64,000 nucleotides of DNA from Chloroflexota bacterium. Lineage in GTDB: Bacteria; Chloroflexota; UBA11872; VXNJ01. Below, piece after piece: positions 11,829 through 64,000 of this stretch (its first letter is position 1; each line of letters begins with the position of its first letter). The DNA is taken from the NCBI GenBank assembly GCA_965208775.1, contig OZ242360.1:2589404-2653403 (forward strand), in the 5' to 3' direction. The translations under genes were made by a program, and so were the position numbers. Below the pieces are notes generated by a model that saw only the letters and a list, made by a program, of their open reading frames with translations, had not been told where the DNA came from and did no database searches.

Positions 11829-11911
11829 CGGGGCGGTAGAGACGACCGTAGATCCATCCGTACTCCCCGGCCTGCTCTTCCTGCCGGCCGAGTTGGTCGC
11901 GCTCGCCGGCG

Positions 11912-12379: not shown

Positions 12380-12426
12380 AGGGTCGCATCCTGACTTCAA
12401 TCCGGGACTCCAACGGTCACAGGATT

Positions 12427-39820: not shown

Positions 39821-40272
39821 TGTCGTGAAGGCTCCAAGGGGAGTTCGACTTTGGGCAGGTCGTCATCGAAGGACGAGTCAAGATCACCGGCGGCGACGGC
39901 GGCCTTGACGTCGGCGAGGTCTTGGGCGAGGTTGCCAGTTTCCATCAATTCGCGAGCCTCGCGCACGACCCGGAGCAAGGCGTTGGTGCGGGCGATGGAG
40001 GGCTTCATGCCGAGGAGATCCTTGGTGGTGATGTCGAGGAGTCGGGAGATGCCGCCGGTCGAGTCGAGGCTCTCGGGGAGGTCGTAGGCGCCCTCGATGG
40101 CCTTCTCGCGGCGGCGGCGCCGGCCGCCGAGTCGCCTGGCCTCGGCGGCCTCCGCCTCGTAATCGGGGTGGTGCCAGAAGCAGAACGGCTCGCCGCCCAT
40201 GGGGCTGAAGCCGCAGGGCGAGCCGCCGGCGTTGCTGGCAGTACAGGAGCGTTTGCGAGCGCGGTCTAGCAT
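39817..40272 (-). CDS. Small Cys/His-rich protein (putative zinc-binding), 151 aa
   Basis: N-terminal C-x9-C-x10-C-x2-HH cluster (CTASNAGGSPCGFSPMGGEPFCFWHH). Overlaps both neighbours by 4-7 nt. Confidence 0.4.
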   Translation of the reverse strand: MLDRARKRSCTASNAGGSPCGFSPMGGEPFCFWHHPDYEAEAAEARRLGGRRRRREKAIEGAYDLPESLDSTGGISRLLDITTKDLLGMKPSIARTNALLRVVREARELMETGNLAQDLADVKAAVAAGDLDSSFDDDLPKVELPLEPSRQ

Positions 40273-44700: not shown

Positions 44701-45755
44701 GCGTCCGCCAGGATCTGGACGACCCTGCTTATGTACCGGGAGCCGGCTTCCGACCGAACCGTGTACATCACGCTGTGGTGGAGATCCAGACCTCCGTCAG
44801 GCCCCAGGGCCTCAAGCGTGAGGCGCGACTTACCCACGCCGTAGAGGCCGACGATCCGGATGACGGTACGCGGCTCCGTAACGTGCTCGCGCAGGTGATT
44901 GCATAAGGCCCCCAAGCGTTCATCCTGCACCCAGGGCGAAGCGTAGTGCTCGGAGCGCTCGGCCCAGTGGCTCCAAGTCCGAAACGGCCCCATGGTTCCG
45001 GGTTGGGTCCGTTCCTTCAGCCATGTTGCGACAGCGGGGTGATGGTTCACCCAGCCGGCGATCTGATCCGCGTCTCGAAAGGCGACTTGGTCTCTATCGA
45101 GGACCAGACCCGCCGATGCAAGTGCCTTACGAATCCTGGATTCTCGCTTTTCGATTTGGTTCTGTGTGTAGGGCTGCGCGCAGATCAGTATGTAGCTGCC
45201 ACCCGCGGCGAGGGCCGTCCTCACCCAATCCTTCACGGCACCGTCGCTGTTAAGGACCGCCCTAGCCGCAGCGGCCGGCGATATGTTTCCGGATTTCAAC
45301 TGGAACAGATTGGGCCCAGAGGGAAGGAACTGTGTCGAATCCGGACCTGCATTCCACTCGATGCGTCCGTCCTCTCGTCCGTCAGGTGCCTGAAAATTGC
45401 TGGCGACCTGTCGTCGATCGAGGGGGAGGCCGTGTTCCCACTCTTCAGCATGGAGCAAGAGCCTCAACAATTCTGGAAGGAGTGTTTCTGCAAGAGCCGA
45501 GACATTGGCGCCGGTCACATCGAACGGCGAGGCTGCTCCGAATAGTCTGGGGTGAGACGCCCGTCCTCGCAGACTGGCCAGTGCCGTTGGATTGGCTTCC
45601 AAGAGCTTCAGCAGATGGAACACGGAAGCGTTTGGCGTGACGGTTCCGGCCTCGTACTTGGTAAATGCACGCGGTCCGCCGCCAATCAGTTCACCCGCCT
45701 CGACCTGCGACAGGCCGAGCCGTTGTCGAACACTGCGAATTTCTTCAGGAGTCAT
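41733..45755 (-). CDS. 1340-aa protein: N-terminal XRE-type HTH + STAND/NB-ARC-like P-loop NTPase + long helical C-terminal region
   Basis: HTH_XRE (RQRLGLSQVEAGELIGGGPRAFTKYEAG). Walker A IVGLYGVGKSRLTLEAL ~350 aa in, Walker B VVVIDDCD, followed by ~850 aa predicted helical repeats. Confidence 0.7.
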   Translation of the reverse strand: MTPEEIRSVRQRLGLSQVEAGELIGGGPRAFTKYEAGTVTPNASVFHLLKLLEANPTALASLRGRASHPRLFGAASPFDVTGANVSALAETLLPELLRLLLHAEEWEHGLPLDRRQVASNFQAPDGREDGRIEWNAGPDSTQFLPSGPNLFQLKSGNISPAAAARAVLNSDGAVKDWVRTALAAGGSYILICAQPYTQNQIEKRESRIRKALASAGLVLDRDQVAFRDADQIAGWVNHHPAVATWLKERTQPGTMGPFRTWSHWAERSEHYASPWVQDERLGALCNHLREHVTEPRTVIRIVGLYGVGKSRLTLEALGPDGGLDLHHSVMYTVRSEAGSRYISRVVQILADAGTRAVVVIDDCDPETHQVLARIALHRRSRLSMVTIDNEVPTGALGGNAHKIGEADPSVTEGILRALVPSLPDGDRIRLTHLSAGFPEMAVRLAQAWNASISVVDATSDQLVDAYVAGRTCRDRGSMTKSAALLAVFGLVRIEPRRDGQLCEIAKLDGALAYRDFHAAVMQVVDGGVAQRHGDLVTLKPLPIAMKLAERQWREWSPDTWDRVLSGDASTPLKLSAAEQLARLDGTDIAQEVTAQVCRQEGPFDGIDGISQDGHARVLSSLAEIHPAVVLSRINDSIAQVEDLSTLTDDVRRQLVWALEKIASHRTHFHDGARHLLRLATADELQSRSTVSREFGRLKQAAKTFCRLFSIHLGGTEADGNERLLFLDEVPDFNNPIEREIVAQALATGLQTSYLWQMGRPEAQGPRPALTPWQPATGGDVHRYVEECALRLARLALKDDEPSLGARSLLGDELFRLVQAGFIDAVAKVVRQVGNAVDYWPEALKCLWRLNDVYAEDLDPEISARIKQLAAVLQPKSPEARIRSLVTEVSWDGPGGSELDSDSRFELRVQEVRRLAEWLAKRPKVLIQHLPQLSRGRHAMSQAFGTAIAELAQSPLEWLEPIVKAVEAAPVEERNHDLLTGFAVGLAHDNFEKVDAFKRKAARSTELAPALPWLCWRLGITPDDIQLVIGSLEDGLLNPSLLNAWSFGQKLADVPPQHLAALFDTLLVHSPEGFAVAAHLMERFSHHDRDRLEDLRPQVLMLAEHSSRWKVPGTHGECKDSFRLVVGWLLRKGKQDTDAWAAAIALAKAVVKAEGIEHQVLLQPVLPRILSDLPEVSWPIIGQAIVSDRRRAWHLGLILGHSYSLPDRNAPLLSLPESALVGWCHGNPDHAPAFVAEHVPVLTPGADATGNPSLHPIIVRLLDEFGDRDDVLQGVDTNIHNFGWRGSKTTYFACYKQPLQELLQHKRPKVRRWARTMLRRLDQQIDAARKQDEEREAQWSL

Positions 45756-46675
45756 GAGAAACTTTCCTCAGGATTGCTGTGACCTCAAGTGAATTATACT
45801 GAATTATATCCCATTGAAGGCGGTTTGATAGCTAGTGGAAAAAATACACCATTAAGATCGGACTGGAAGCTAAACTTGGAACGGACAGCCGTTCGCGCCG
45901 CCTGGCTCTGATCGAGTCAGCGTTTCGGCCTAGGGCGACCTGCTCGGTTTCGGGCGTGCAGTCAGTAGTCGGACAGCGATGGAACGTGTCTGCAGAACTG
46001 ATCAAATAGGAGAGTTAGAGAATGGCGACATGGTACGGATGGCAACGGGGCGTGCAGCGCGCAGTCTTGGTCAGCAGACGCGATCGGGTTTCTGATGGAA
46101 GTATTGAGGGCCGATACCGGCTAACAGCCGTCGAGCTTACTTAAGGTGAGTGTTCGGGTACTAGCAACCGTTACCAAACGTTACCTTTGGTAGCAAAAAA
46201 AGATCTCCTATGGGATTTCTGACAGGGAAAAAAGATTTTCGGGCGGATTTGACGCGATTCGGCCATCGGGGAGGCGCACGAGGACGACAGGATCGTATGT
46301 CGAGCCCCAAGGTCACCAGCTCCACGATCCCCGCGAACATGCGGTTTGTAGCGCGTCTCATCGAAACTGGCCGCAACCCGATCCATGTTCAATCAATCTC
46401 TCTAACTCACCGTGTGGCGCGACGGGTGCGAACCGTGCGGTGATGAGGGCGTCGTCGCCGGGACCGAAAAACTCGACGGCAAGCGGCGGCGCTTATATAT
46501 AGAAAGTAATCATCAGTAGAAGCGCTCTCTGAAAGGTGTCGTCGGAAGCCCGGAGCGGGTCTTGGGAGCTGACCTGCTGGGCTCGATCCGCCAAGGACCT
46601 AGTTTGGAAACTGGAGCTAGGAGTGGGGCGCCCGGAGTTGAAGTTCGAGACGGTCCGGGGCGCGAGAATTAGGCG

Positions 46676-48283
46676 TCAGACGGCGAAGATTCTCTGGAGT
46701 GTGTAGCAGAAGCTGGCAGCGATGCGGGTGGCAGTCGCCTCAGCACTAGGGAACCTGTAATCGATGACGACCTCGACCCGCTTGGGCCCGTTATCGGGCT
46801 TGGTCGTGTGGACCGTGATGCGGCGCACCAGCAGCTTAACGATCTCGTGTCGTTCCTCGTCCGAGAGGTCCTGAGCGAGGCGTTCACGCAGCTCCGCCAG
46901 CACCTCCTCCGAGAGAGCAACGTCAGGAGAGTCCCGTTCGGCATCCAGATCGGCCAGCCGCGCATCCAGCGAGTTGAGTTCCTCATCCACCTCGGCGGCG
47001 ATGGAGTCGAACTCGGGCTGGGAGATCATGGCGCGGACGTAGAGGTCGATGGCGCGCTTGCGGCGGTCCTGGACTGCCGAGCGGGCTTCCAGGAGCGAGT
47101 CACGTTCAGGCTGAGCGACAGAGCAGTCCTCCAACTTCCCGTTCTCGACCGCAAGCTCGTCGACGAGAGGCTGGGGATCGGTGAGGAAGCGGCAGACATC
47201 CGACCAGACGACGGCCTCCAACCTGTCGCCCTTGATGGAAGCGCCGATGCACTTACCCGGGAAGGGGCCGCGTTCGACCATGGCGCCGTTGCAGCGATAG
47301 CGCGGCTTGGACCTGGCCCAGGTACCGCAGAAGGACAGGCCGCATACGGCGCAGCGGATGAGGGAGCGGAGGAGGTAGAAGCGGCGGGAAGAGGTCGCCG
47401 AGATGCGGTTGCGCTTGAGAGCGGCGATCGCGGCGTCCCAGGTTTCCTCAGAGACCAGGGCGGGCACAGAGGCCGAGATCACCTCCCTGCCATTGGGACG
47501 AGTCGATCGACGTCCGAACTGGAGGACGCCCTTGTAGACCGTGTTGTGGACGAGGTTGCGGATGTGGCCCGACCGCCAGAGGCCCTGTGTGCGCTTACCG
47601 CGAACGCCACGGCCAGCGCGGCGATACGAAGTGGGGATGCCCAGCGAGTTGAACTCGTCCGCGATCCGCCTGCAGCTCCAGCCGTCCGACGCGAGGTGGT
47701 CATAGATCCGTCTAATCACGTCAGCCGCAGACAAGTCCCCCCACATGATGGAGTCGTCCGGCACGAGATACTTGGCGCCCCTATCGCCCGAGACCCGGTA
47801 GCCAAGCGGGACGATCCCACCCGTATAGCGCCCCTCACGCGCCGCCCGGTTCATACCTTCTGCTGAGCGTTCGAGGAACTTACGCCGCTCATTGGCGGCG
47901 ATGACAGCATGGATATCGAAGTAGAACGGGTCGTCGATATTCTCGTCCGTAGCACGTAAAGAGACGCCGATCGACTCGAACACCCTCCAGATGCGGAGGA
48001 GTTCGAAGGCGTCGCGCCCCAGGCGATCCGAGCGGACCACCCAAAGCTGGGAGAAGCGGCCCGCGCCGGCATCACGTACCAGAGCGGCGCCCATAGGTCG
48101 CTGTTCCAGGGGGATCGTCCCCGACACCCCATCGTCCTCGTAATTGCGGAACACGACGACACCAGACTCAGAAGCCAGGCGGCGAGACAGCGCCGCGCGC
48201 TGGTTGAGGACCGTATGGCGGTCGCGCTGTTCGTCAGACGAGACGCGGGCATAGGTAGCGATGCGGACCATTGGACTGGTCAT
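46676..48283 (-). mobile_element. Large serine recombinase (resolvase-domain + recombinase + zinc-ribbon type)
   Basis: IATYARVSSDEQ catalytic Ser motif, GRYTGGIVPLGYR recombinase domain, C-terminal CxxC...C and a coiled-coil. Confidence 0.85.
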
Positions 48284-48514
48284 ATGACCTCCCTAGGTAA
48301 GGGGTAAAGGAGCGGTACCTATGAACGCTCTGGAGGCCGAATAGATCAAGGCGGACCGGCGTCCCGCGGGAGTGATGCCATAGCAACGACGCCGATCCGT
48401 CCGAAGGGCGGGGCACCCCCCTGGATGCGCGCAGACGTGGAAGAAGGCTGCGCAGCCACCCCGCCGGAACAGATTCTAGACTTGCGAGACCAGGACTCGA
48501 AGAGGCGGGACCTG

Positions 48515-49522
48515 CTAGCTCAAGCCGAGGACGGTGGCGACACCCTGCCAAGCGACGTCGCGCTGCCCCTCCAGCCTGCGGAGATAGGTGGTGGTGACCG
48601 CCAGCGAGCTGTGGTCGAGGAACTGGCTGACCGACTCCACCGACTCGCCCACGTCCCGGCGCAGCTTGGCGGCGGTGTGGCGGAGGACGTGAAGGCCCGA
48701 GGGAGGCAGACCGGCCAGACGGAGGTAGGTACGGAATCGGTTGTAGAAGGTAGAGGCCGTTACTCCCGAAGGACCAGCAGCCGCCTGCCAGAGCGACTCG
48801 CTGGGCTGCATCGACGAAAGGTCCTTGCCGACATCACTAAGCGAGCGCTGAATGGCGACCAGGGCTGGAGTGGGTAGTTCACGCCTGCCCCGCACGCCGC
48901 CCTTACCGATGTAGCGATAGAAGACAGCCGAGTCATCGAAGGAGACATCGCCGACCTTGAGGTTAATCACCTCCGACCTGCGTCTGGCCGTAAGAATGAG
49001 AGTGATGACGATCGCGCGGTCCCGCCTGCCCTTCACGGTGTCCGGTATGGCCCCAAGGAGCAACTGCACCTGGGAAGCGGTTAAGCCTCTAGGGGCGCTG
49101 GGTTGAATCTTGGGGCGTTCGACGGGATCGCAGGGATTGGATTTGAGGACATCCAGCCTGATGAGGAACTTGTAGAACGAAGAGATACAGCAGATACGAC
49201 CACTGACGGTAGAGGGAGACGGCTCACGACCAGACAGGCCTATGCCATGGGCGAAGGAAAAGACATCCTGAGCAGACACCTGATCCGGCGACTTCTGGGT
49301 AGAGCCGAAGAAATGGCGGAGAATGCGGTAGTAAGAGTCAGGGGTTCGCAGAGAACCGGAGCGGCGTTGCTTCTCGGCCAGGAAGGCATAGAGCGAGGCA
49401 TCCCAGCCCGACGCAGAGCCGGAGAAGACAGTGGGGAGAGTGGTTGGACCGGCGGTCATGGTGGTCTCCTTGAAGATGGAGAAGTTCCGCATGACGATTG
49501 CTCTGGTTGGCAGAATGATCAA
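48515..49522 (-). mobile_element. Tyrosine recombinase / phage-type integrase (XerC/D-like)
   Basis: Box I/II: RRSEV, LRHTAAKLRR, DHSSLAVTTTYL (catalytic R..HxxR..Y). Divergent from hsdM. Confidence 0.85.
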
Positions 49523-49626
49523 GCACTATGTGTGAATAGGAATGAGCCGTTGCAGACGCTCGGAGCACAGCCAAGACGCCGTCAATCACTCAGTGACTCA
49601 CGGAGCGACACTGTTATAATGCAGAT

Positions 49627-51467
<1,841 letters not shown>

Positions 51468-51471
<4 letters not shown>

Positions 51472-52805
51472 ACAGTGCATGGACATGGCGTCCCCTTGGA
51501 GAGTTGTTCGAGATCGGCGCGGGCAAGACGATGTCCGCCGCCGCGCGTCGGGGCCCCGACAAGACGCCTTTTCTTCGAACGTCGAACGTCCTCTGGGACG
51601 AGATTGACCTGTCGACCGTCGATGAGATGTCCATCCCGGAGCGCGAGTTGCCCGCCAAGCTGTTAACGCGAGGCGACCTGCTCGTCTGCGAGGGCGGCGA
51701 GATAGGACGTGCGGCAATCTGGGATGGTCAGATCGAACCGATGTCGTTCCAGAACCACCTGCATCGGCTGCGGCCAATCGATTCGAACGTCGAGCCGCGC
51801 TTTTACGTGTTCTTCCTGCAATCGGGTTTCACGCAGCTAGGCATCTTCGAAGGCGCAGGCAACAGAACGACGATCCCCAACCTGTCCCGTAGCCGCTTGG
51901 CGGGGCTGGACGTGCCTCAGCCCCCGTTAGCTGAGCAACAGGCAATCAGCGCGGCGCTCAATACGGTGCGCGACGCACTCAAAGTACAGGACCGGAGTAT
52001 CGAGATCTCACAAGACTTGAAACGCACCGCCATGCAGGCCCTCTTCGCCCGCGGCCTGCGCGGCGAACCTCAAAAGCACACCGACATCGGCCCCATCCCG
52101 GAGAGTTGGGAAGAGGCAACGCTAGGAGAATTGTGTGACATCACTAGTGGGGGGACTCCTCGGAAATCAGTCGCCGGGTTTTGGGGGGGAGTCATCCCTT
52201 GGGTCTCCGGCAAGGACCTGAAATGGCCTGTACTACATGATGCAATTGACCACGTTACGGATGAAGGAGTCCGAGCAGGTAGTCGATTGGCCTCCAAAGG
52301 ATCTGTCTTGTTGCTGGTTCGAGGAATGGGGCTGGCGAAGGACCTTCCAGTCGCCGTGATTAGTCGGCCAATGGCATTCAATCAGGATATAAAGGCACTC
52401 CTCCCTCGCGGCGAATGTCCGGGAAGCTTCTTGAGATCGGCGATCTACGCCGGTAAACAGCGGATGCTAAATCAGGTCGTGACGTCCGCACATGGGACGA
52501 TGACATTGAACCTCCATGATGTGCGGAACTTCAGAATCGCATGTCCGTCCGACCCGACCGAGTCCAACGAGATCGTTGCGATCCTCGACACGATCGACCG
52601 CAAGATAGACCTCCACCGCCGCAAGCGCGCCACCCTCGACGACCTCTTCAAATCCCTCCTCCACAGGTTTATGACGGGTGAGCTCAGTGTGATCGAACTG
52701 GATTTGACCGCGATTCCCACTCTAGGTCCAAAGGACGGAGGCGGAATCACTGAACCAATCATTGAAAAAGGAGAATTTGATGACATCCACCGGTATTCCC
52801 ATTGA
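51468..52805 (+). CDS. hsdS: Type I R-M specificity subunit HsdS (two TRDs)
   Basis: Starts in an ATGA overlap with hsdM. Central and distal conserved helices ([18 protein letters not shown]... and [22 protein letters not shown]). Confidence 0.85.
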
Positions 52806-53337
52806 GAGATTTCTCTTCGGGAATGAACATTGGAGATCCAACCGCGCCATAGACGAGATATGCGTTTACAGCGACTTGCTAGAAGAACTGCAAGACACGA
52901 TAGATGCTTTGGAAGTGCGCGGCAAAGATGAAGAGACTGCATTGGTCAACGCACAGGCAGTCATAAGTAGCTATGCGGTTGAAATCGCTATGAAATCCCT
53001 CTGGGCATTGGACAACTCTCCTGCAACCGTACCCCGTGGACGTCAGGGACATAACCTGCTCAGGATGTTCGACCGTCTGAAGCAAGAGACAGTGGAATCG
53101 CTTGGGCGACTTCAGCTGACCAGGACAGTCCTCGAAGAATGCCCTTCACCTTTCCCTAGTAACAGATACTCGATGGAATGCGGCAGTAGAGACATCGTGG
53201 TCTACGATGCGGGGTTCCTTAGGCAGCTTGCACAGGTGCTTAGAGAGAAGCTGGATCAAACGAGGACGCAATCACTCTCCCCCACCGCAAACGCGCCATC
53301 CTCGACGAACTCTTCAAGCCCCTCCTCCACAAGCTAA
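52762..53337 (+). CDS. Small helical protein inserted after hsdS; possible HEPN-like (RGRQGH, Rx4H) protein
   Basis: 191-aa ORF whose last ~25 codons (..APSSTNSSSPSSTS) are an off-frame reading of a duplicated hsdS 3' tail, so the real C-terminus is uncertain. The Rx4H motif alone is weak evidence. Confidence 0.35.
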   Translation: MKKENLMTSTGIPIERFLFGNEHWRSNRAIDEICVYSDLLEELQDTIDALEVRGKDEETALVNAQAVISSYAVEIAMKSLWALDNSPATVPRGRQGHNLLRMFDRLKQETVESLGRLQLTRTVLEECPSPFPSNRYSMECGSRDIVVYDAGFLRQLAQVLREKLDQTRTQSLSPTANAPSSTNSSSPSSTS

Positions 53338-53415
53338 TGACCGGCGAAATCCGCGTTGATGATCTCGACTTGCACGTGATCAAGCAACCGCTTCACCTCG
53401 ATGGAGAGATCCCTT
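53242..53415 (+). repeat. Second copy of the hsdS 3' conserved tail (gene-fragment remnant; frame-0 segment ...HRKRAILDELFKPLLHKLMTGEIRVDDLDL...)
   Basis: Direct nucleotide repeat of 52604-52690 (caccgcaaacgcgccatcctcgacgaactcttcaagcccctcctccacaagctaatgaccgg). Preceded by stops in frame and has no start codon. Confidence 0.7.
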
Positions 53416-53485
53416 GAGTGTGAAAGCCACCGCCCATTTGCCCACCTCCGCCGAAGCCAAATGCCAATGAAGATAAGGAGAACAG

Positions 53486-53947
53486 ATGATCGACCCGAAT
53501 TCTAGGGCAGCCGGCTCGACCGACGACGACAAGCAGGTCTTTACATTGCCACTTGGCGACGATGTGGATAGGCAACTCTACGCACTTGAGAAAGCACAGA
53601 AGGCTGTGTATGCGTTAGCCACAAAGCAAGGAGACCTCAAGGACCGGCTTGCTGAAGCCTTCACTGAACTCATTCGAATTGATGTATCGGCTGTTCCTGC
53701 TCACCTCCAGTCCGACTACAAGTGGATCAAGAACTCTCTGACAAGCAAGTCTGCCAAGCAACGCGCTTTTGCCCAGGGTAGATGGGTTGAAGGTGTCGAA
53801 GGTCGAATCGGCGCAACTCTGGCGTATATGCGACGGAAGAAGACGGAGGAAATAGCCGACCGCATCACCCAATTCGCGTCTCAACTAGAGGACGCAGTAA
53901 GCGCACCATCCTTGACGACCCCTTCAAGTCCCTCCTCCACAAGCTAA
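53486..53947 (+). CDS. Small hypothetical protein (153 aa) between hsdS-tail copies 2 and 3
   Basis: Coding-like, helical. The C-terminus (..APSLTTPSSPSSTS) again runs into an off-frame hsdS-tail repeat. Confidence 0.3.
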   Translation: MIDPNSRAAGSTDDDKQVFTLPLGDDVDRQLYALEKAQKAVYALATKQGDLKDRLAEAFTELIRIDVSAVPAHLQSDYKWIKNSLTSKSAKQRAFAQGRWVEGVEGRIGATLAYMRRKKTEEIADRITQFASQLEDAVSAPSLTTPSSPSSTS

Positions 53948-54048
53948 TGACCGGTGAGATACGGGCAGAAGAGCATGACCTCTCAGCAATCGGAAGACCA
54001 GCCGGCCGTAAGCTCGGTGAGATGAGACGACCACGCATATGTCAATAG
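53890..54048 (+). repeat. Third copy of the hsdS 3' conserved tail (frame-1 open segment ...KRTILDDPFKSLLHKLMTGEIRAEEHDL...), ending 10 nt into the helicase gene
   Basis: Direct repeat (aagcgcaccatccttgacgaccccttcaagtccctcctccacaagctaatgaccggtgag). No start codon. Confidence 0.7.
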
Positions 54049-56012
54049 AAAACCAGCCAACACCATGGCTCGAAGGGATCGAGGGCAGCGTTGCCCACGA
54101 GCTAATTGAGTCGGATGCACAGGTCATCCGCGTGGTAGCGGGACCTGGATCAGGGAAGACGACCTGTCTCAAGCGCCGACTCCAGCGTCTAATCCAGAAG
54201 GACGAGATCGATCCAAAGACGGTGTTCGTTGGAACGTTCACGAGGGCGATCTCAAGAGAGTTGAGAGAGGCGCTTGGTACGGAAGTTCGAATTTCGACGC
54301 TCCATTCACTAGCTTACGGACTGCTTCGAAAGTACCCGGCTGCGTGTCAGGGGATGCAATTGCGTTTTCTTCTGAGATTTGAAGAGGATGCATTGCTATA
54401 TGACGTCGAAGGGGTCGCCAAGTCGATAGGCAACATACACAAGCGCCGAGAAGCGCTTCGGATGTTACAGGCCAGTAGGTCGCAACGGGCAAAGTACGCG
54501 AATGCCAGATTTGATGGTGCCGTTAGACGTTGGTTGCAACGGCACCGAGCAATGTTAATAGGGGAGGTTGTCCATCTTTGTGTAGTCGGACTGGAGAGCG
54601 ACGACATTCCTTCCGGGTCTTTTGGTCACGTGGTGATCGACGAATATCAGGACCTCACTGCCGCAGAGCAGGAACTGGTGCGTCTCGTCTGGTCCACGAC
54701 GGGATCTCTGACAGTGTTAGGGGATAACGACCAATCGATATACGGCTTTCGATTTAACCATCCTGACGGGATTGCAGACTTCCATCTAGCTTGGCCTCAA
54801 TGCAAAGACTTGACATTCATTGATAACCGCCGTTGTGGAGAACGTATCCTCGACGTAGCTAACTTGATGATGGCCGAAGCCAGTGGCACGAAACCGCCGA
54901 TGAACTCAAAGAGTGCGCGTGTTGGCGAACTGAAGGCCGTTCAGTGGAACACTCTCGATGACGAGATTACTGGTCTGGCAAATGTCATCAACTCCTATGC
55001 AGACGAGTCGTTTCTCGTCCTCGTTCCTCGTCGCTTCATCGGCTATCGCTTGGCTGACGCAATTGGAAGTGACGCGAGAACGACGTTTTCTGAGCAGGCG
55101 TTAGAACACTCCATCGCGCAGGAGTGCTTTGCTACCGTGTCACTATTGGCCAACCCGGAAGACTTCGTAGCGGCTCGCGCCTATCTTGGATTTCATGGTA
55201 CGAGTCGAAAGCAGGCACCGGGTCGTAATGCGGAAGCCTACGCTAGTCTGCCGACAAACATTGGCGGCCACGAGATGATCCGGCAGATTGCAACTCAGAA
55301 GGTCAACATCTCTGGGACAGGACAGAGCCATATTCAGGAACGAGCGAAGAAGGCAGTTCAACTAATTGACTGCTCCTTGACACCAACAGAGACCATAGAC
55401 CTTGCGTTCAATGATTCACTGGCAAACGAAGAACAGGATGATGAAAAGCGGCGCTGGTTGGCCGAACACCTGCGAGAGCTTAGGGACGCGGCGCACGAAT
55501 TGTTGATGCGACCAGACACGCCTACCTTGTCGAAGGTCATTGAGACGATGAGGTACCAGATTGCTACTCGCGCACCTTTGCAAAGTTCCGATGACGAGGA
55601 GCCTCGCGTGAAAATCATGACACTTCATTCAGCTAAGGGACTCGAAGCCGACAACGTCGTAATTGCAGGTGTTGCCGATCAATTCATGCCGGGTACTGAA
55701 ACCGATCAAAATGTCATTGCGGAACAGAGACGACTGCTTTACGTGGCGGTTACACGTGCCAGAGACCGTCTGATCATTTCGTGGCCTCGAAGAATCAGGA
55801 CAGCCGACCTGATGAAGAATATGGGACGCCGAGGCCAGGTAACCACCACGAACGGCGAAAAATGGGGCATCACGTCACGCTGTTCCCTGCTTCCTCAAGG
55901 TCTGAGCGGCGTCATAACTGGTTCCCAGCTACTTGCCTCAGCGATTGAGGAAGCGGCGAGCCGTGGAGAAAGCCGTGCGCGCCACGCTCTCAAACATGCT
56001 GCCCCAGGTTAG
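54039..56012 (+). CDS. UvrD/PcrA/Rep-like SF1 DNA helicase, embedded between hsdS and hsdR
   Basis: Walker A VVAGPGSGKTTCL, motif II VIDEYQDLT, motif V/VI IMTLHSAKGLEADNVVIAGV ... LLYVAVTRARDRL. 657 aa with no nuclease domain recognised. Confidence 0.85.
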   Translation: MSIENQPTPWLEGIEGSVAHELIESDAQVIRVVAGPGSGKTTCLKRRLQRLIQKDEIDPKTVFVGTFTRAISRELREALGTEVRISTLHSLAYGLLRKYPAACQGMQLRFLLRFEEDALLYDVEGVAKSIGNIHKRREALRMLQASRSQRAKYANARFDGAVRRWLQRHRAMLIGEVVHLCVVGLESDDIPSGSFGHVVIDEYQDLTAAEQELVRLVWSTTGSLTVLGDNDQSIYGFRFNHPDGIADFHLAWPQCKDLTFIDNRRCGERILDVANLMMAEASGTKPPMNSKSARVGELKAVQWNTLDDEITGLANVINSYADESFLVLVPRRFIGYRLADAIGSDARTTFSEQALEHSIAQECFATVSLLANPEDFVAARAYLGFHGTSRKQAPGRNAEAYASLPTNIGGHEMIRQIATQKVNISGTGQSHIQERAKKAVQLIDCSLTPTETIDLAFNDSLANEEQDDEKRRWLAEHLRELRDAAHELLMRPDTPTLSKVIETMRYQIATRAPLQSSDDEEPRVKIMTLHSAKGLEADNVVIAGVADQFMPGTETDQNVIAEQRRLLYVAVTRARDRLIISWPRRIRTADLMKNMGRRGQVTTTNGEKWGITSRCSLLPQGLSGVITGSQLLASAIEEAASRGESRARHALKHAAPG

Positions 56013-56406
56013 ATTCCGCGTCCTTCATCACGATTCCCGCGCCCACTACGGCTTGCAGGTAGCGGATTACTGCTGCTGGGCGATCTTCAGGAAACACGAG
56101 CGGGGAGATTCGGCCCACTTCAACATAATCGGGAGCGCAGTGCGCAGCGAGTTCGACATCTTTCGGACAGGATCGACGTATTGCTACTGAATATGCCGAT
56201 TTGCAGACAAAAAACGACCTCCCCGACTACTCCGTTTCCGCGGAGAGCACCCGTGACTCTCTTGTCATCGGGGAGGGACCTTTGATCGACGATAACGCGC
56301 AAATGCAGGATGCGGCCAACAAACGCAAGACGCGGCCAACTTCCAGCCGGGCATTCAAAGAAGCCGCTGAGACTCACGCCGCCCCGCTCGAAGTGAGGAA
56401 ACGGCA

Positions 56407-56718
56407 ATGAACCCACGTATCTTCATCCCGAGGGACGCCCTTGCCACATTCTGCCGAGAAAATGGGATAGGGCGCTTGGCCGTCTTCGGCTCTGCGCTGC
56501 GCGAAGACTTCGGACCCGAAAGCGACATCGACCTGCTGGTCGAGTTTGAGCCGGACCGCGTTCCCGGGCTTTTCGGGCTGGCCGGTTTGGAGTTGCAATT
56601 GTCCGAACTGTTCGGCAGGCAGGTAGACCTTGTGACGCTCTCCGCCATTGAGCAGAGTCGGAACTATATCCGCCGAAAAGCTATTCTCGATTCCGCCGAG
56701 GAAGTCTATGCGGCGTGA
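56407..56718 (+). CDS. mntA: MntA-like minimal nucleotidyltransferase (antitoxin of a HEPN/MNT pair)
   Basis: 103 aa; GSALREDFGPESDIDLLVEF = the GS..D[ID]D nucleotidyltransferase motif. Confidence 0.75.
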   Translation: MNPRIFIPRDALATFCRENGIGRLAVFGSALREDFGPESDIDLLVEFEPDRVPGLFGLAGLELQLSELFGRQVDLVTLSAIEQSRNYIRRKAILDSAEEVYAA

Positions 56719-57073
56719 CGACGCATACCTGCTGGACATGCTCCTGTCGTCCCGGGACGCGGTCGAGTTTGCCTCCGATATCACCTACGCGGAGTTCTGG
56801 GAGAGCCGTCTTCACCGGAATGCAATCTTGAAGTCGATTGAAATAGTCGGCGAGGCCGCGTCTCGCGTAAGCGCTGGAGCTAGAGAGGCCCACAACGAAA
56901 TTCCATGGGGCGAAATTATCGGAATGCGCAATCGCATCGTGCACGCCTATTTCGAAATTGATATCGAGCTTGTTTGGAGAGTCGTAAAGGACGATCTGCC
57001 GAAGCTCATTACCCGGCTTGATAGAATAGTGCCTCCCGACCCGAGTCGTAAGCGGACCAGTGAAGATAACTGA
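56708..57073 (+). CDS. hepT: HepT-like HEPN toxin (DUF86); start taken at internal Met overlapping the mntA end by 11 nt
   Basis: C-terminal RNRIVHAY (Rx4HxY HEPN RNase motif). Its 3' end overlaps the hsdR start by 14 nt. Confidence 0.75.
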
Positions 57074-60002
57074 AGCGGACGTCGCGCAGTTTCCGATGGT
57101 CCGCCACGCGGCGGAGATCGGCTGGACCCCCATCCCGCCAGGTGCCGCCAAGCGAAAGCGCGGCGGCGAAACCGGGATGCTCTTACGTGGCGAGCTCGAA
57201 GCCAGACTGGCCGCCTTCAATCCGTGGATGTCGTCCGACGCCATACGCCAAGTCGTCGAGCGGATCGAGGCCCTGCCGCCCACCATCGAGGGCAACTGCG
57301 AGATGCTCGGCTGGCTGCGCGGCGAGCGGCAGTCGCACGACGAAACCGAGAACCTGAATCGGCGCGTCCGGCTGATCGACTTCGACTCGCCCGCCGCCAA
57401 CAGGTTTCACGTCACCTGGGAATGGCGGCTCAAGCCCCCCGCGCGCAAGGCCAACCGCGCCGACGTGATGTTCGTCGTCAACGGCGTTCCTGTCGCCATC
57501 GTCGAGCACAAGAACCCCAAGGACGCCAACGCCATCGAACGCGGCGTCAAGCAGCTCAAGCGCTACGAGATAGAGACCCCCGAGCTACTCGGCTCCCCGC
57601 AGCTGTTCAACGTGACCCACGTTCTCGACTACTGGTACGGCGCTACCTGGAACGCCAACCGGCGCTACATGGCGCGCTGGAAACGGCAACGAGAGGAAAC
57701 CTACAGGTTCGCCGTTCAGTCGTTCTTTGAGCCGACCGACTTCCTGCGCACGCTGCGCGACTGGATTCTGTTCTACGTCGAGGACGGCGAGACTCGAAAG
57801 TCGGTCTTGCGCCAGCATCAGCGCCGCGCCATCGACCGCATAGTCGAGCGCTGCTCCGAGCCTGACAGGCGGCGCGGACTCATTTGGCACACCCAGGGTT
57901 CCGGCAAGACCTTCACCCTCCTCACCGCCGCCCGCCTGATCCTGGAGCGTAAGGCGGAGTTCCAAACGCCTACGGTGGTGGTGGTCGTCGACCGTACCGA
58001 GCTCGAGGGTCAGCTTGAAGGTTGGGTCGAGAGGCTGCTCGGGGAGATGAAGCAGCAGGACATTCCGGTCTGGCGCGCCGGCTCAAGAGCCGAGCTCCGT
58101 GAGATTCTCGCGACCGACAAGCGCGGCCTGGTCATCTCGATGATCCACAAGTTCGAGGGAATCCAGAAGAACGCCAACGTCCGCGGCAACATTTTCGTCT
58201 TCATCGACGAAGCGCACCGCTCCGTCGCCAGGGACCTCGGGACCTATCTCATGGCGGCCCTGCCCAACGCTACGATCATCGGCTTTACCGGCACGCCCAT
58301 AGACAGGACGCAGCACGGACAAGGCACTTTCGTGATTTTCGGTGCCGACGACGACCGGGGCTATCTCGACAAGTACACCATCGCCGAGTCGATAGAAGAC
58401 GAGACCACCCTGCCGATCCGGCATACGATGGCATCGAGTGAGATGACTGTCCCGACCGAGAGGCTGGACAAGGAGTTCTTCGAACTGGCCACGGCCGAGG
58501 AAGTCACCGACGTCGAACAGCTCAACAGGGTCCTCGACCGGGCGGTAGACCTCCGCGCGTTTCTGACCGCCGACGACCGAATCGAGAAAGTCGCCGCGTT
58601 CGTTGCCAAGCACTTCAGGGAGAATGTACAGCCCCTGGGCTACAAGGCGTTTCTGGTCGGAGTCAACCGCGAAGCCTGCGCCAAATACAAGCAAGCCCTC
58701 GACAGGTTTCTGCCGCCCGAATGGTCAATGCCGGTCTACTCCGCAAACCCAGACGACATAGTCGACCGCCCGCTTGTCGCCGAGCTCCAGCTATCGCGTG
58801 CCCAGGAGTCGGACGTCCGGCTCTTGTTCAAGAGGGCCAACGAAAACCCGAAGATTCTGATCGTCACCGACAAGCTCCTTACAGGCTACGACGCGTCATT
58901 GCTCTACTGCATGTATTTGGACAAGCCGATGCGCGACCATGTGCTCCTGCAGGCGATAGCCAGAGTGAATCGCCCCTACGTGGACGCGAACGGCGTCCGC
59001 AAGCCCATAGGCTTGGTCATCGACTTCGTGGGCGTTCTGCGCGAGTTGAAGAAATCGCTGCGGTTCGACAGCTCCGACGTTGAAGGTGTGATCCAAGACC
59101 TCGATCTGCTGTTCAGGGACTTTGTCACGAAGATTCATGAGGTGGCGGTCGGATATCTCCACGACCTGCCGGAAATTACCGATGATGAAGCCTTGGAAAA
59201 GGTCGTCTTCGGGCGATTTCTCGACCCCGAGCAGCGCAAGGAGTTCTTCGAGAAATTCAAGCAGATCGAGGCGCTCTGGGAAATCCTCTCGCCCTCGCCC
59301 GAGTTGCGCGATTACATCGATTCGTTCCGGCAGCTTGTCGCCTTGTACGCCGCCGTGCGCGGTGCCTATGCGCCCGGAGTCAGTTTCAGTGCAGATCTGG
59401 CTAACAAGACGAGATCCATGGTGCAGGCGCGCACTGCCCAGGATGGTCCCGACTACTTCACAAAGTCCGTTACGTTCGACTTGCCCACCCTCAAAGCGCT
59501 GCGAGAAGAGCCGGGATCAGACGAGGCCAAGATATTCAATCTTGTGCGGGGTCTACGAGTAGAAATCCAACGCGACCGGGACATGGCGCCCGTGCTTCAA
59601 ACCCTTAAGGAACGCGCTGAGCGCATCCTTCAGGAATTCCAAAACCGCAACGTGGACAGCCTTGCCGCGATGAACCTGCTGGAGCAATTGGCAGACGAAA
59701 AGGAAGCCGCAGTCGAAGCCGCGAACGATAGCGGTCTGTCGTCTCGGGGATTCGGCGTTTACTGGACTCTCAGGGAAGACAGCGCTCTGGAAGCGGCAGG
59801 GATTCCCGCCGCGGAGCTGGCCGAAGAGGCGGAAACGCTATCTGCCCGCTTTCCGAACGCCGCCGTAAACGCCGACGAGGCGCGTAGACTCCGAGCCGCC
59901 CTGTATCTTCCGCTTCTCAAACTTGACAACGAGGAGCGTATCCGAATCATCGATGCGATACTCGGAATCCTGCTTGACGTGGACTCGGATGCGCATAGCT
60001 GA
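57060..60002 (+). CDS. hsdR: Type I restriction enzyme R subunit HsdR
   Basis: 980 aa. Walker [18 protein letters not shown] box [10 protein letters not shown], helicase motif [11 protein letters not shown]-terminal nuclease region present. Confidence 0.9.
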
Positions 60003-60297
60003 GGAGCGCCGCCGGGTCATTCGTGATCGCGTCGAATACTGGACTCAACGACTCAGCGTCGCCCCCAGGGTTGTTCGCGTGCAGCACATGACTCGCAAGT
60101 GGGCTTCCTGCTCAACATCTGGTGTTCTCACATTCGCGATCGATCTGGCTGAACAGGAACCCGGATTTCGAGACTTCGCCATAGTCCACGAGCTATTGCA
60201 CCTGCGCGTTCCCAACCACGGAAAGCTGTTCAAGGCGTTGATGACCGTTCATGTACCAGACTGGAGAAAGTATGAAGTGGGCAGGAACCATTTGTGA
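59923..60297 (+). CDS. DUF45/YgjP-like zinc metallopeptidase (WLM-type HExxH), short form, overlapping the hsdR 3' end
   Basis: HELLHL (HExxH) motif. This family commonly follows hsdR. Likely starts at an internal Met ~59986. Confidence 0.55.
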
Positions 60298-60557
60298 CCT
60301 GCGCTCCAAAATCTGTCCCCGGACATAAATCGGGATTTGCGGCCGGAGTCTGCTTCCCTAGCTGACTGCTGAATACCGCGACCAAGTCAGCTGCCGCGCG
60401 GAGCCAACGAGCATTCGTGAAGCCGACTCGATCTAGGTGGACGAGTAGAGACTCCTACCGGTCAATCACGCTGCTTTCTCGGATTGGAGGGCGCCAATCT
60501 GGTTTGGCCATGGGCAGGTTTCAGGCACCGTTCGACGCCGCCTTGATCCTCACTAAG

Positions 60558-61790
60558 CAGACTTAGGGTTGCGCTTGCGGGTGGTGAATCGTTCGATTCG
60601 AGCCTGTCAGCGCTGACCAATTCAAGCCACCTCAACTGCATCAGTGGGCAGTCGATTCCAATGCGTCGTTCCAGTCCCGTCGTTTCCATTGGCGTTTCAA
60701 AGAGGCACGCGAGCAGACGTCACGCTTCCGTCTGTTTCTTCGTCTCCCTCTTGGACGACCTGTAGCCGACCGGCATTTCAGTGAAGACATAGGTACGGTT
60801 TTCGCCGTCATCGCCCAACTTGCGACGCTGACTGCTTACTGCAGTACGCATGGTACGAGTACCGGAGTTCGCCTGAAGGCGCTGGTCCCTGTTGATCATC
60901 AGGCGTCAGGCCAAAGCTGACGAAGTCCGAGGGCCTGCTCGACCCGTCCAGGGTCGTGATCACGCCCTAACGGGAGTCCGTCAACGCCAGGGCGCTCTCG
61001 ACCACCTCCTGGAGCACGGTGTCGAAATCGAGGCTCTCGTTTACGCGCAGGCTGGACTCGCTAAGCCGCGTCAGCCGGTCTCCGAGAGCCTGACTCTCCA
61101 AGTCTCGAAGATCCTGTCGGTCTATCTATAGGCCTCGATCAGGCAGCAGAAGGTCCGGTAAACCAGCCGATGTGAAACGGCAATTGCGGGTCCGGATTGG
61201 GTGTTTCCAGAGCAATTATGCCGGATTCGACTGAAACTCACACTGATCTTATGCAAACGGGTCGCCATTCTCACGCCCATCTTATACACGACTTCTAGAC
61301 TAAAGCGTCACTGACCCGCCGAGGGGAGGCAGCCGCTTGGCCTTCGACTTCGATGGTTTCGACGCGTCTGGACCTTTGGATGTCGAACGGTCTTCAAGGT
61401 TGAACGCGGTGCGGCCTTGTCACTAGCCCGGGCGTCCCGAACGAGAGTGGGGCGGTGCCGGAGAGGATCGGGAGTGGCGTGAGTGGTGTCAGGCCAATCG
61501 CCGGCAGTTGCACCTGTCATCCGTGTTGCAGTCGTGGTCATCCGGCCATTCATCGTCTAACTCTTCCGGGCAAGCCGTTTCCCAGGGCTGATTGGCGCGC
61601 AACTCACCTAGCCCTGGTCACGGAGGGCGGGGTGAGCCCCCTGGCTAGCCCTCTACCCAACTTAGCCAGTTGGCCGCCCCGCCCTTTTCAGAATGGAGCG
61701 CCATGCAGGAGCGAGACGTCGTTGTCCTGATCGCGGTCGTGCTGATCGCGGCTGTCCTGATTGTCCTGGCCATGTTCTTGACGACCGTGT
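60558..61790. repeat. Copy B of the ~1.2 kb imperfect direct repeat (pairs with 12427-13628)
   Basis: See copy A. Has a 15-nt internal tandem duplication (gatcgcggtcgtgctgatcgcggctgtcctga) relative to copy A. Confidence 0.85.
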
Positions 61791-61828
61791 GGCCGGTGAG
61801 CGCGGCTACGAGCTGCCCGCCCTGTTAG
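61703..61828 (+). pseudogene. Truncated duplicate of the lipoprotein gene 5' end (41 codons, MQERDVVVLIAVV...)
   Basis: Shares the RBS/start and first ~20 codons with the gene at 13565, then diverges to a stop. Lies inside repeat copy B. Confidence 0.4.
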
Positions 61829-62051
61829 GGAACAGACCGGCGCTCCGTGTGGACTCCGCCGCCGCCCCGGACTGTTTTCGGGTACCGCGGCGACATCGCC
61901 GCCTGATCGGTATATCGATGTTCCAAAGACAACAGTCAAGCCCTCAAAACCGGCTGCGGCCGCGTCTGGTCGCACATGCGCTCTGAGCCACACTGGTCTA
62001 TGAACTAGGTCTCGTTTGCGACTGATTGCCGTAATTCTCGCATTGGTCGGC

Positions 62052-64000
62052 ATGGGGCTGTTCGCAAGCCTGCTGCCTCAGACTAGCTTCGTCTCGCGGT
62101 CTTCCGGCGAGGTTGTCGACGCTATCGGTCCCGTCTGGCCCAGTTTCGCCGTCGAGCAGGTCCTGGACGATGTAGACATCATTTCGGAAGTCCGCATTTG
62201 GGCTGCGGCCGGCTTCGATCGCGGGGAAGCCCCAATTGCCGCCTCGCTACTCCGCCAGGCCGACAGGGAACCGGTGCGTCAGTACCAGGCTCGGATACGC
62301 TCCAGTAAAGTCCTCCTCCCATACGTTCTCGTCTTTCCGCCGTATGAGCCCACGCCCGGTGAGAAACTGGTATTGCAACTCTGGGTCTCCACCGAGCGGG
62401 AAAACAGCGCCATATTCGGCACAACCAAGCCAAAAGAACACGTAACCCCGCCAACGCTCGCCGGTGGACCCGCGGACAAGGGCACTCTCGCTTACGAAGT
62501 GATTTGGAGAGGAACCGGTTGGCAGGCCGCTCTCGAGGGATCTACGCCAGACCTTGCGCGCCTGGCAGGAGCGCTGGCGGGTACGACGCTAGCCGTTGCG
62601 TTAGCATTACTGTCGTACACCCCCCCCCGCGTCTCCCGACCTCTACGCAACGCCACGCGGAGGGTGCGAGTTGGGCTTCTGTCCCTGGCCAGCCGCCTAC
62701 CCGTCGTGCCGAGAGCATGGCACGGTGACCTCGGTGAGCAAGCGTCGGATTTTCAGACTTCAACCGCGCGGCGCGCCTTGTACGTCTTTCCGTGGCTAAT
62801 CCCCGCTTTCGCGATACTGCACTATCTCTCCAGCAACCTAATCCTGTTTCGCGTCTCCGAGTCGATTGCGGTCTTCGTCGTCACCATGGCGACCGTCACG
62901 GTCGCCTTCGTGGTTTGTCGGCTGATATTCAAGACGGCCGCTGTCGCGGCGGCGCTCACGGGGCTGCTCGGAATCGTGTTCTTCTCTTACGGCCATGTGT
63001 ACATTGCGCTCGGCGATCGCGCCGACGATAGATTTCTTCTTGGACTGGGACTGCCGATCATGCTCGGCCTCGGGGCCCTACTGATACGACGACGTGAACT
63101 AGCGCGCAAGATTAGGATGTCCCTCAACGTGGGCAGCGTTTTGCTTGTTCTCTTGCCCATTTACCAGATCGCCACCGACTTCCACGCAGGCAGCCGACCG
63201 CAAGACGTTGACCCTTTCGACGGTTTCCCGGGACTCGACGAACGGCTCGCCGAAGCCAGGGACAGACTCTCAAGAGATCAACTTAGAGACATCTATTACA
63301 TCATCCTGGATGAATATCCCAGGAGCGGTTCGCCTCCGGAGTTCGACAACAGCGAATTCGTGCAGCAACTGGAAAACCGCGGCTTCTACGTGGCCCCACA
63401 AGCTCGCAGTAACTACATGCGCACGTACCAGTCGATTCCCTCATCCCTGAACATGGGTTACGTCCACGAGGAGCGTTCCAGTTCCGGCGGCGAATTACGC
63501 CGACGATTGCTGGCGCGGGCAGGCGACAACGCGCTGGGCAGAATCATGGCGGCCCTGGGATATCGATACGTGCATGTCGCCTCCGGATCCGACTGGACGA
63601 ACACAAGCCGCAACGCCGCGGTCGTCGTGGAGTTCACGCCCGCCGGGGTTGCTCTTGCGGGAGATGAATCCGAGGACCCGTTTGCATTCGATAGGGCCAG
63701 GAGGCTGTCGGGTAGATTCACGGACGCATTCCTGCGAACGACTACCGCCAGACCGTTCCTTCCGAGGAGATTCGACATTCAGCCGGAGGACCCCTACGCG
63801 TACCCTCCAGGTCATCCGTTCCGGACGCTCGCGTGGCTGGATTTCATGAAGACCGTTGGGACCATGGAAGGTCCCAAGTTCGTCTTCGCACACCTGCTAA
63901 AGCCGCACGGGCCGTATTCGTTCGACAGGCACGGAAACATCACTTTCGACAGTTGGGGCTGGCCTGACGATCATGATCCAACGGTGTCCGAAGCCTTCTA
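62052..64000 (+). CDS. Partial CDS running off the window end: polytopic membrane N-terminus + sulfatase/alkaline-phosphatase-superfamily (LtaS/MdoB-like) domain
   Basis: Open frame from the stop at 62001-62003 to the window end, first ATG at 62052; not in the ORF track because no stop is reached. ~5 TM helices, then DIYYIILDEYPRSGSPPEFDNSEFVQQLENRGFYVAPQARSNYMRTYQSIPSSLNMGY, resembling the N-terminal metal-binding region of membrane sulfatases. Confidence 0.45.
   Translation, partial: MGLFASLLPQTSFVSRSSGEVVDAIGPVWPSFAVEQVLDDVDIISEVRIWAAAGFDRGEAPIAASLLRQADREPVRQYQARIRSSKVLLPYVLVFPPYEPTPGEKLVLQLWVSTERENSAIFGTTKPKEHVTPPTLAGGPADKGTLAYEVIWRGTGWQAALEGSTPDLARLAGALAGTTLAVALALLSYTPPRVSRPLRNATRRVRVGLLSLASRLPVVPRAWHGDLGEQASDFQTSTARRALYVFPWLIPAFAILHYLSSNLILFRVSESIAVFVVTMATVTVAFVVCRLIFKTAAVAAALTGLLGIVFFSYGHVYIALGDRADDRFLLGLGLPIMLGLGALLIRRRELARKIRMSLNVGSVLLVLLPIYQIATDFHAGSRPQDVDPFDGFPGLDERLAEARDRLSRDQLRDIYYIILDEYPRSGSPPEFDNSEFVQQLENRGFYVAPQARSNYMRTYQSIPSSLNMGYVHEERSSSGGELRRRLLARAGDNALGRIMAALGYRYVHVASGSDWTNTSRNAAVVVEFTPAGVALAGDESEDPFAFDRARRLSGRFTDAFLRTTTARPFLPRRFDIQPEDPYAYPPGHPFRTLAWLDFMKTVGTMEGPKFVFAHLLKPHGPYSFDRHGNITFDSWGWPDDHDPTVSEAF

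Follow-up and report, generated by a model that had tools for sequence, protein, structure and literature searches.

Do the genes lodged between hsdS and hsdR of a type I restriction-modification (R-M) operon form a defence system in their own right, or have they become neighbours by other means? The question is raised by a stretch of 64,000 nucleotides (nt) from a Chloroflexota bacterium (contig OZ242360.1, positions 2,589,404 to 2,653,403 of the forward strand), here called the window, in which two small genes, orfA and orfB, and the gene of a UvrD-like superfamily 1 (SF1) helicase occupy that gap. An earlier reading of the letters alone, which we call the sequence-only reading, saw in them a novel defence module, with a small HEPN-like protein and the helicase as partners. 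We favour another explanation, to which we assign a probability of roughly 0.6: the gap is a variable cargo bay, orfA, orfB and the helicase gene are independent passengers brought in by recombination, and the helicase likely acts on the DNA substrates of restriction.

Part of the earlier description stands. The three open reading frames lie on the + strand where they had been placed, at 52762-53337 (orfA), 53486-53947 (orfB) and 54039-56012 (the helicase gene), and they are embedded as proposed in a type I R-M operon that is co-directional throughout, with hsdS on one side and the MNT/HepT-hsdR block on the other (Pfam). They are real genes, with conserved homologues and ratios of non-synonymous to synonymous substitution (dN/dS) of 0.09-0.40 that indicate purifying selection; the values are 0.09 for the helicase, 0.29 for orfA (against the sister locus L036) and 0.29-0.40 for orfB, compared with 0.22 for hsdM and 0.18 for hsdR in the same sister loci. 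Both orfA and orfB have a strong ribosome-binding site. The likelier start of orfA is an ATG at 52780, which is preceded by AAGGAG and gives a product of 185 amino acids (aa; 52780-53337) that matches database protein P0121, while a TTG at 52762 would give 191 aa. The product of orfB, which has AAGGAG 5 nt upstream and nine close homologues, is 153 aa long, and the helicase 657 aa.

Being adjacent, co-directional, co-transcribable and under purifying selection, the three genes could be taken for a three-gene defence system in which orfA, as a HEPN-like protein, and orfB would replace GajA beside a GajB-like helicase; the helicase does match the GajB models of PADLOC. To judge from sequence comparison, however, this proposal is largely refuted by the distribution of its parts. 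Eleven loci of the close helicase clade (at least 58% identity) were examined besides the window, and tblastn finds a homologue of orfA or orfB in none of them. Four sister operons (L025, L034, L035 and L036), on the other hand, carry orfA and/or orfB without the helicase, and orfA and orfB are also found apart from each other. Among the matches listed, no large contig except the window's own combines the helicase with a homologue of either, and the full combination appears in no other locus. No small-protein partner of the helicase is therefore conserved, and housekeeping contexts, the other finding that the sequence-only reading had named as counting against itself, appear for distant homologues (no more than 54% identity) alone. 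The supposed partnership of small protein and helicase is thus unsupported, the more so since orfA shows no detectable HEPN homology, and we consider a three-gene system highly improbable.

The DNA between the genes preserves a record of how they came together. As a repeat search showed, the last ~104 nt of hsdS occur three times as direct repeats, all on the + strand (repeat family D1): copy 1, the genuine tail and our reference, at 52611-52714; a second at 53277-53412 (repeat 53277-53380), 75% identical to it; and a third at 53887-54055 (repeat 53887-53990), 66% identical. Tail remnant 2 is the decayed 3' end of another hsdS, with the hsdS-frame reading ..HRKRAILDELFKPLLHKLMTGEIRVDDLDL..., and both extra copies still encode the conserved C-terminal helix in the hsdS frame (..KRAILDELFKPLLHKLMTGEIRV.. 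and ..KRTILDDPFKSLLHKLMTGEIRAEE..). Because each enters a tail copy in another frame, orfA and orfB both end in ...SSPSSTS; the last ~16 residues of orfA are a non-native reading of copy 2, and the last ~14 of orfB a non-native reading of copy 3. Homologues of orfA end at ~166-171 aa in the alignment, and in L025 and L035 the native orfB stop (after ..AVVES) lies upstream of the tail. The residual frame of remnant 3 overlaps the helicase start codon, in the same way as hsdS meets the helicase gene in L001, L002 and L051. At its far end the helicase gene is abutted, and slightly overlapped, by a truncated DUF3800 pseudogene on the + strand (55948-56282), of which the 3' half alone is left (tblastn to residues 140-250 of the L036 DUF3800 protein, 61% identity); the last ~20 helicase codons run into this remnant, the native length being ~640-650 aa. 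Since decayed hsdS ends lie between orfA, orfB and the helicase gene, the three have separate origins, which is a further difficulty for the three-gene system.

The same conclusion emerges from the similarity of successive blocks to different sister operons. By blastn, window positions 52568-53344 (tail 1, orfA and proximal tail 2) resemble L036 at 91%, 53328-53965 (distal tail 2, orfB and proximal tail 3) resemble L034 at 82%, 53896-55915 (tail 3 and the helicase gene) resemble L001 7882-9895 at 74%, and 56014-56615 (the 3' half of DUF3800 and MNT) resemble L036 5314-5911 at 81%. The block boundaries therefore place one crossover at 53328-53344, where tail 2 has its LHKLMTG core, and another inside tail 3, somewhere in 53896-53965. 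An L036-like operon has the layout hsdS-orfA-...-DUF3800-MNT-HepT-hsdR, and the alignments show the replacement of its distal tail 2 to mid-DUF3800 portion by a segment of ~2.7 kb carrying orfB, tail 3 and the helicase gene. The left junction of this incoming segment lies in the hsdS tail, the homologous anchor, and the right junction is an illegitimate join that truncated DUF3800. Judged by these alignments, cargo is exchanged by recombination between sister operons with the conserved last ~100 nt of hsdS as the anchor, and the three genes are therefore neighbours through recombination and not a functional module. The probable arrival of orfB and the helicase gene on one recombined segment is a further point on the side of a three-gene system.

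The tail remnants are best described as decaying scars, because the window and L034 have in common a deletion variant that fuses orfB to tail 3 while L025 keeps a longer tail remnant together with the native orfB stop. Selection on the remnants was considered and dropped: identity between the window and L034 is ~82-85% everywhere, in non-coding stretches as in the rest, and no special constraint on the remnants can therefore be claimed. Likewise rejected was a reading of orfA and orfB as frameshifted half-HsdS proteins, or as proteins that gain the HsdS C-terminal helix through -1 frameshifting; it was prompted by the position of the tail in the -1 frame in both genes and by a C5 run at the orfA junction. 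Homologues stop upstream of the tail or are without it (P0125, P0144, L025 and L035), neither product matches Methylase_S, the predicted structures are mainly helical, and the orfB-tail deletion variant common to the window and L034 is as in a decaying scar. In L025 the tail remnant after orfB (8482-8682) is annotated publicly as a 66-aa gene, which is probably an artefact of a pseudogene fragment.

How variable the gap is can be seen from the operon family as a whole, the order of which is HTH-hsdM, hsdS, cargo, hsdR and a YgjP-like gene, HTH standing for helix-turn-helix. Relative to the window, L001, L002, L003, L051, L025, L034, L035 and L036 are 73-84% identical in HsdM and 66-88% in HsdR at the amino acid level, and the nine operons (the window included) differ in what lies between hsdS and hsdR. 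The cargo seen comprises the helicase, MNT-HepT, DUF433, DUF3800, a SLFN_AlbA_2 ATPase, an AriA/PtuA-like ATPase, Lipase_3, TIR and PIN toxin-antitoxin genes. In the window alone, the gap contains four or more cassettes that are unrelated to one another (orfA, orfB, the helicase gene and MNT-HepT), with two decayed hsdS 3' ends and the truncated DUF3800 as scars. Position between core genes and variable presence among sister operons are the marks of embedding, and both are seen here; recurrence in other defence contexts is seen for the helicase (L022, L023, L007 and L009) and for orfA (GmrSD, type I and type IIG-like), while orfB recurs, among the loci examined, in this type I family alone. 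In L035 the gap is filled by a ~10-kb island (6092-16200), whose genes include Lipase_3, orfB, TIR_2, LD_cluster2, ThsB_TIR, FitA-PIN, DUF3800 and PhdYeFM. In L034, the closest sister, hsdR (10509-13447) is broken into three frames and hsdS (6658-7836) is without the conserved C-terminal helix; this operon appears to be decaying while its cargo reading frames stay open.

The most consistent of the passengers is the helicase, which is the first gene after hsdS in five loci of the family, its start overlapping the stop of hsdS or, in the window, of the hsdS remnant. As the sequence-only reading held, it is UvrD/PcrA-like (Pfam UvrD-helicase, AAA_19 and UvrD_C) and Pfam finds no nuclease domain in it. 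Across 19 aligned homologues the helicase motifs are invariant: G37, G39, K40 and T41 of Walker A (GxGKT), D201, E202, Y203, Q204 and D205 (DEYQD), Q232-R238 of motif III (GDxDQSIYGFR), T528-G534 of motif V, and T572 and R573 of motif VI. At least 120 homologues are found at 57-79% identity, and in the IMG/VR viral contigs there are no close relatives, the matches being generic UvrD-like helicases so distant that their best segments are 23-44% identical. The protein is a full-length SF1A enzyme of the UvrD/Rep/PcrA type and presumably an active 3'-5' DNA motor, and we regard its gene as a candidate accessory or defence gene.

In Gabija, GajB is the UvrD-like helicase partner of the OLD-family nuclease GajA, and is reported to have a (d)NTPase activity that DNA ends stimulate. 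The window helicase resembles GajB in its SF1A UvrD-like fold, in its defence-island context and in its top PADLOC matches, which are GajB models (3e-44, 149 bits; the TIGR Rep model scores 150 bits), and it might therefore be an orphan or degenerate Gabija part, a GajB that has lost GajA or uses one encoded elsewhere. An ABC-type ATPase 3' of the helicase gene in L022 could be cited in support; this protein, however, is PD-T4-4_A-like and not GajA. The sequence-only reading was right that a GajA-like partner is lacking: the gap of the window is without any AAA_15, AAA_21 or TOPRIM gene, the neighbours of the helicase gene being orfB and MNT, no GajA-like gene adjoins it in L001, L002, L021, L023 or L051, and no OLD-type ATPase-TOPRIM gene does so in any of the loci examined. 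Profile matches to the Protein Data Bank (PDB) are far better for UvrD1, Rep, UvrD and PcrA (~1e-42; 147-150 bits for UvrD1, Rep and UvrD) than for solved GajB (3e-18, 68 bits), and the length of ~645 aa is UvrD-like, some 150 residues more than the ~495 aa of solved GajB chains. A Gabija remnant is thus very unlikely, although a helicase acting alone as a GajB-like, DNA-end-sensing NTPase is an alternative to the role that we favour.

Where the helicase occurs elsewhere is more informative about that role. In L001, L002, L003 and L051, which belong to the same operon family as the window (protein identity to the window 68-77% for HsdM and ~71% for HsdR in L001-L003; DNA identity 76% for hsdM and 71% for hsdR in L051), it directly follows hsdS, its start overlapping the hsdS stop or falling a few bases after it, and the cargo on its 3' side consists of MNT-HepT, DUF433 and DUF3800, or else of a SLFN_AlbA_2 ATPase. 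Elsewhere it lies inside Hma-like operons (L022 and L023; DUF1156 methylase, DUF499 ATPase and SNF2 helicase), in L007 and L009 beside unrelated type I systems, in L004 on the 3' side of a DEAD/MrfA-type helicase gene, and in L021 in an island with T5orf172 and DUF559 genes. Restriction-type contexts thus comprise five type I loci of this family (the window included), two Hma-like operons and two positions beside other type I systems, and show that the clade is preferentially embedded in restriction-type operons. To the question of whether its orthologues are always inside hsdMSR loci the answer is mixed, since the link to restriction operons is strong but Hma-like operons and other islands carry the gene too. 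The G+C content of 0.53-0.54 over 52000-56000, against 0.62-0.65 in the flanks, and the cross-phylum distribution of the helicase together indicate horizontal transfer. Relatives at 58% identity or more (L003-L009; P0094 and P0118) come from metagenome-assembled genomes titled Dehalococcoidia, Chloroflexota, Poribacteria and Acidimicrobiia, and one match is labelled Cenarchaeum; these carriers we take to be sponge-associated lineages, among which the operon family and its cargo appear to have spread horizontally.

The helicase lacks both an effector domain and a conserved partner, and it keeps company with two unrelated systems that cut unmethylated DNA and translocate on it; its most likely sphere of action is therefore the products or intermediates of restriction. 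We propose that it would work as an ATP-driven 3'-5' DNA helicase or translocase, that its substrates would be those that restriction complexes create, namely DNA ends, nicks or translocating complexes stalled on unmethylated DNA, and that by unwinding cut invader DNA or stripping protein off it, it would favour destruction instead of repair. A stronger version of this proposal makes the helicase a dedicated accessory subunit of a type I R-M subfamily and of Hma, translationally coupled to HsdS and cooperating mechanistically with the restriction complex, whether it processes the DNA once this has been cleaved or removes translocating complexes that have stalled. We regard it as possible but doubtful; if true, it would add a fourth functional component to type I restriction, one not previously described.

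The opposite beneficiary is also conceivable. UvrD, Rep and PcrA displace proteins from DNA, and the helicase may protect the host by freeing unmodified sites in the chromosome of type I or Hma complexes, stalled or translocating, as a form of operon-encoded restriction alleviation. Its linkage to two unrelated systems, both with long-lived, ATP-driven translocating complexes, would suit such a role, and restriction alleviation in Escherichia coli is reported to target long-lived translocation states of HsdR (PMC4231737). Four sister operons nonetheless manage without the helicase, and we think host protection improbable.

Several points weigh against the favoured explanation, that of a cargo bay whose helicase acts on restriction substrates. 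We know of no precedent for a helicase without effector or partner as a stand-alone defence gene. The sample of contexts is small (~11 loci of the close helicase clade, 4 of orfB and ~7 of orfA). Validated embedded genes, namely TgvAB and the HEC systems, work independently of the host system, a point against the cooperation that the mechanism assumes. Finally, helicase homologues at 44-54% identity sit amid housekeeping genes (for methionyl-tRNA synthetase, a short-chain dehydrogenase/reductase, a pyridoxal-phosphate enzyme and acetyl-CoA synthetase), with synteny conserved in two Phototrophicaceae genomes (L010 and L011), so that a general role in DNA metabolism is possible and the restriction-embedded clade may derive from a housekeeping paralogue.

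This last point bears on the view that the helicase is an ordinary UvrD paralogue, a DNA-repair or replication-accessory protein that happens to lie near mobile restriction loci and has no defence role. The helicase shares the domain architecture and all catalytic motifs of housekeeping UvrD, Rep and PcrA, and lacks an effector domain. Yet its scores against the NCBIfam UvrD/Rep/PcrA equivalog models, 125-150 bits, fall far under cut-offs of 911-1168; nine of the eleven other close-clade loci lie inside or beside restriction-type systems, of which three different kinds are represented; the overlap of hsdS stop and helicase start is conserved; and the low-GC segment and cross-phylum distribution point to a horizontally mobile gene. 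An ordinary paralogue is accordingly unlikely in our judgement, a little less so than host protection.

The two small genes can be considered on their own terms, as independent small embedded genes and candidate stand-alone defence or toxin-like genes. The orfA product belongs to a conserved helical family of ~170 aa with 140 homologues, and its description as a small helical protein is borne out by an all-helical AF2 model (pLDDT 76, pTM 0.72). The HEPN-like label is another matter. The Rx4H motif on which it was based (R85 and H91) is present in the window but confined to it and its closest relatives; it lies in a three-residue RGR insertion, most homologues being without both the insertion and an arginine there, and H91 alone is invariant. 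Alignment to HepT by hhalign has a probability of 0.1%, and in Foldseek HEPN structures appear among the non-significant matches alone (E > 1, TM ~0.3), so that the assignment of orfA to HEPN is unsupported. Searches of Pfam, PADLOC and NCBIfam assign it to no family, and the Pfam search of the 191- and 153-aa proteins that had been suggested, for HEPN or other known families, returned no match for either. Homologues of orfA occupy the hsdS-hsdR gap of the same operon family in L036 and L034; others stand alone, with GmrSD and integrase genes, another type I system or a type IIG-like methylase nearby, and no relatives were found in the IMG/VR viral contigs. One homologue of 263 aa, P0185, includes a HicB-like antitoxin domain (PF15919), whether through a genuine fusion or through a mis-call, and in L028 an 89-aa reading frame overlaps the start of the orfA homologue; in some genomes, these features hint, orfA may have a toxin-antitoxin-like setting.

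For orfB, the earlier description as a 153-aa helical protein agrees with a predicted structure that is mainly helical (pLDDT 75). It contains an invariant motif, EGxEGRIGATLAYMR, and its core falls in a large superfamily of ~110-aa proteins with 554 distant cluster representatives, for which Pfam, the PDB and PHROG give no match; Foldseek against the PDB likewise finds nothing significant for orfB. All four loci examined (the window, L025, L034 and L035) have orfB in the hsdS-hsdR gap of this operon family, and among these four it occurs nowhere else. A second orfB paralogue, P0242, with 74% identity, lies on the same 3.24-Mb contig outside the window, and likewise ends in a low-complexity extension resembling the tail-derived ends; this ending suggests that the genome has another type I locus in which the same unit of orfB and tail is present.

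The arrangement itself, with defence candidates inside R-M operons, is already known, and it is the cargo that is uncharacterised. Examples of such embedding are the rlo genes in Campylobacter type I loci and PrrC, which is encoded in the EcoprrI operon. TgvAB is embedded in the type I operon of Vibrio cholerae VPI-2 (PMC11411939), and a 'guilt by embedding' survey by Payne et al. (2024) covers Hma, BREX, DISARM and type I operons (bioRxiv 10.1101/2024.01.29.577857). As in those cases, the cargo of the window is unrelated to the restriction core genes between which it lies, varies among sister operons and recurs in other defence contexts; the same helicase clade is found inside both type I and Hma operons, and MNT-HepT corresponds to the PADLOC candidate PDC-S09. 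The window differs in that the helicase, orfA and orfB matched no validated HEC or PDC model (for the helicase, among the best 25 of 53 PADLOC matches), in that its helicase lacks an effector domain, and in that it keeps hsdS tail scars of cargo exchange. No description of type I operons with an embedded UvrD-like helicase was found in the literature searched.

Recombination in conserved hsdS regions, domain shuffling and partial or duplicated hsdS copies are well documented (PMC3077401; PMC7394358; bioRxiv 10.1101/2022.09.01.506293), and the window shows both recombination in conserved hsdS regions and partial copies. What sets its copies apart is that they repeat, in direct orientation, no more than the 3' tail, that their frame differs from that of the adjoining genes and that the genes they flank are non-hsdS cargo; they record cargo exchange rather than specificity switching. 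What is new here is the identity of the cargo, the recurrent hsdS-helicase junction and the direct hsdS tail copies that mark cargo junctions. The locus is thereby a physical record of cargo movement, with the hsdS 3' end as anchor and an illegitimate far junction, and it suggests that extra hsdS tail copies could mark cargo boundaries in type I operons generally, which offers a simple search criterion. The 'HEPN plus helicase' system was a false lead that is now removed; in its place stands a conserved clade of UvrD-like helicases, with neither nuclease nor conserved partner, that recurs in type I and in Hma, two restriction systems that are unrelated. If the helicase aids restriction or host protection, it would reveal a way in which translocating restriction enzymes can be helped by an SF1 helicase, and would be a new type of cargo for the catalogue of embedded defence.

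The remaining features of the operon are those of a type I system, with HsdM, a two-domain HsdS and an HsdR combining nuclease and superfamily 2 (SF2) motor at one locus (Pfam); all lie on the + strand. Its first gene is hsdM (49627-51471; N6_Mtase 1.4e-74, HsdM_N), which has an N-terminal XRE-type HTH (HTH_3/HTH_31; 49627-49830) that most of the sister operons examined retain, and which may control the operon from within. It is followed by an intact hsdS (51468-52805; Methylase_S 3.5e-31 in two stretches) with two target-recognition domains and its own conserved C-terminal tail. Beyond the helicase gene, MNT (56407-56718; NTP_transf_2 9e-15, NCBIfam MntA) and HepT (open reading frame 56648-57073, likely start ATG 56708; HepT-like 8e-24, NCBIfam HepT) form a type VII toxin-antitoxin pair (56407-57073), a separate cargo cassette. 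Then come hsdR (57060-60002; SWI2_SNF2, HSDR_N, ResIII and T1R_D3-like) and the gene of a YgjP-like metallopeptidase (59923-60297; 3e-23), which is the conserved downstream end of the operon. A promoter-like site with an extended -10 lies upstream of hsdM (49593-49620, score 10/12), and no convincing + strand terminator was found inside the hsdS-hsdR gap; on this basis the operon is probably a single transcription unit from hsdM onward. An Rfam scan of 45000-64000 returned no RNA element. Upstream, on the - strand (41733-45755, 46676-48283, 48515-49522 and 40266-41561), are genes for a PD-Lambda-4_A-like protein of 1340 aa with an MqsA/HTH N-terminus, a large serine recombinase, a tyrosine integrase and a ParB-N6/N4 methylase, which place the R-M operon within a defence island or integrative element.

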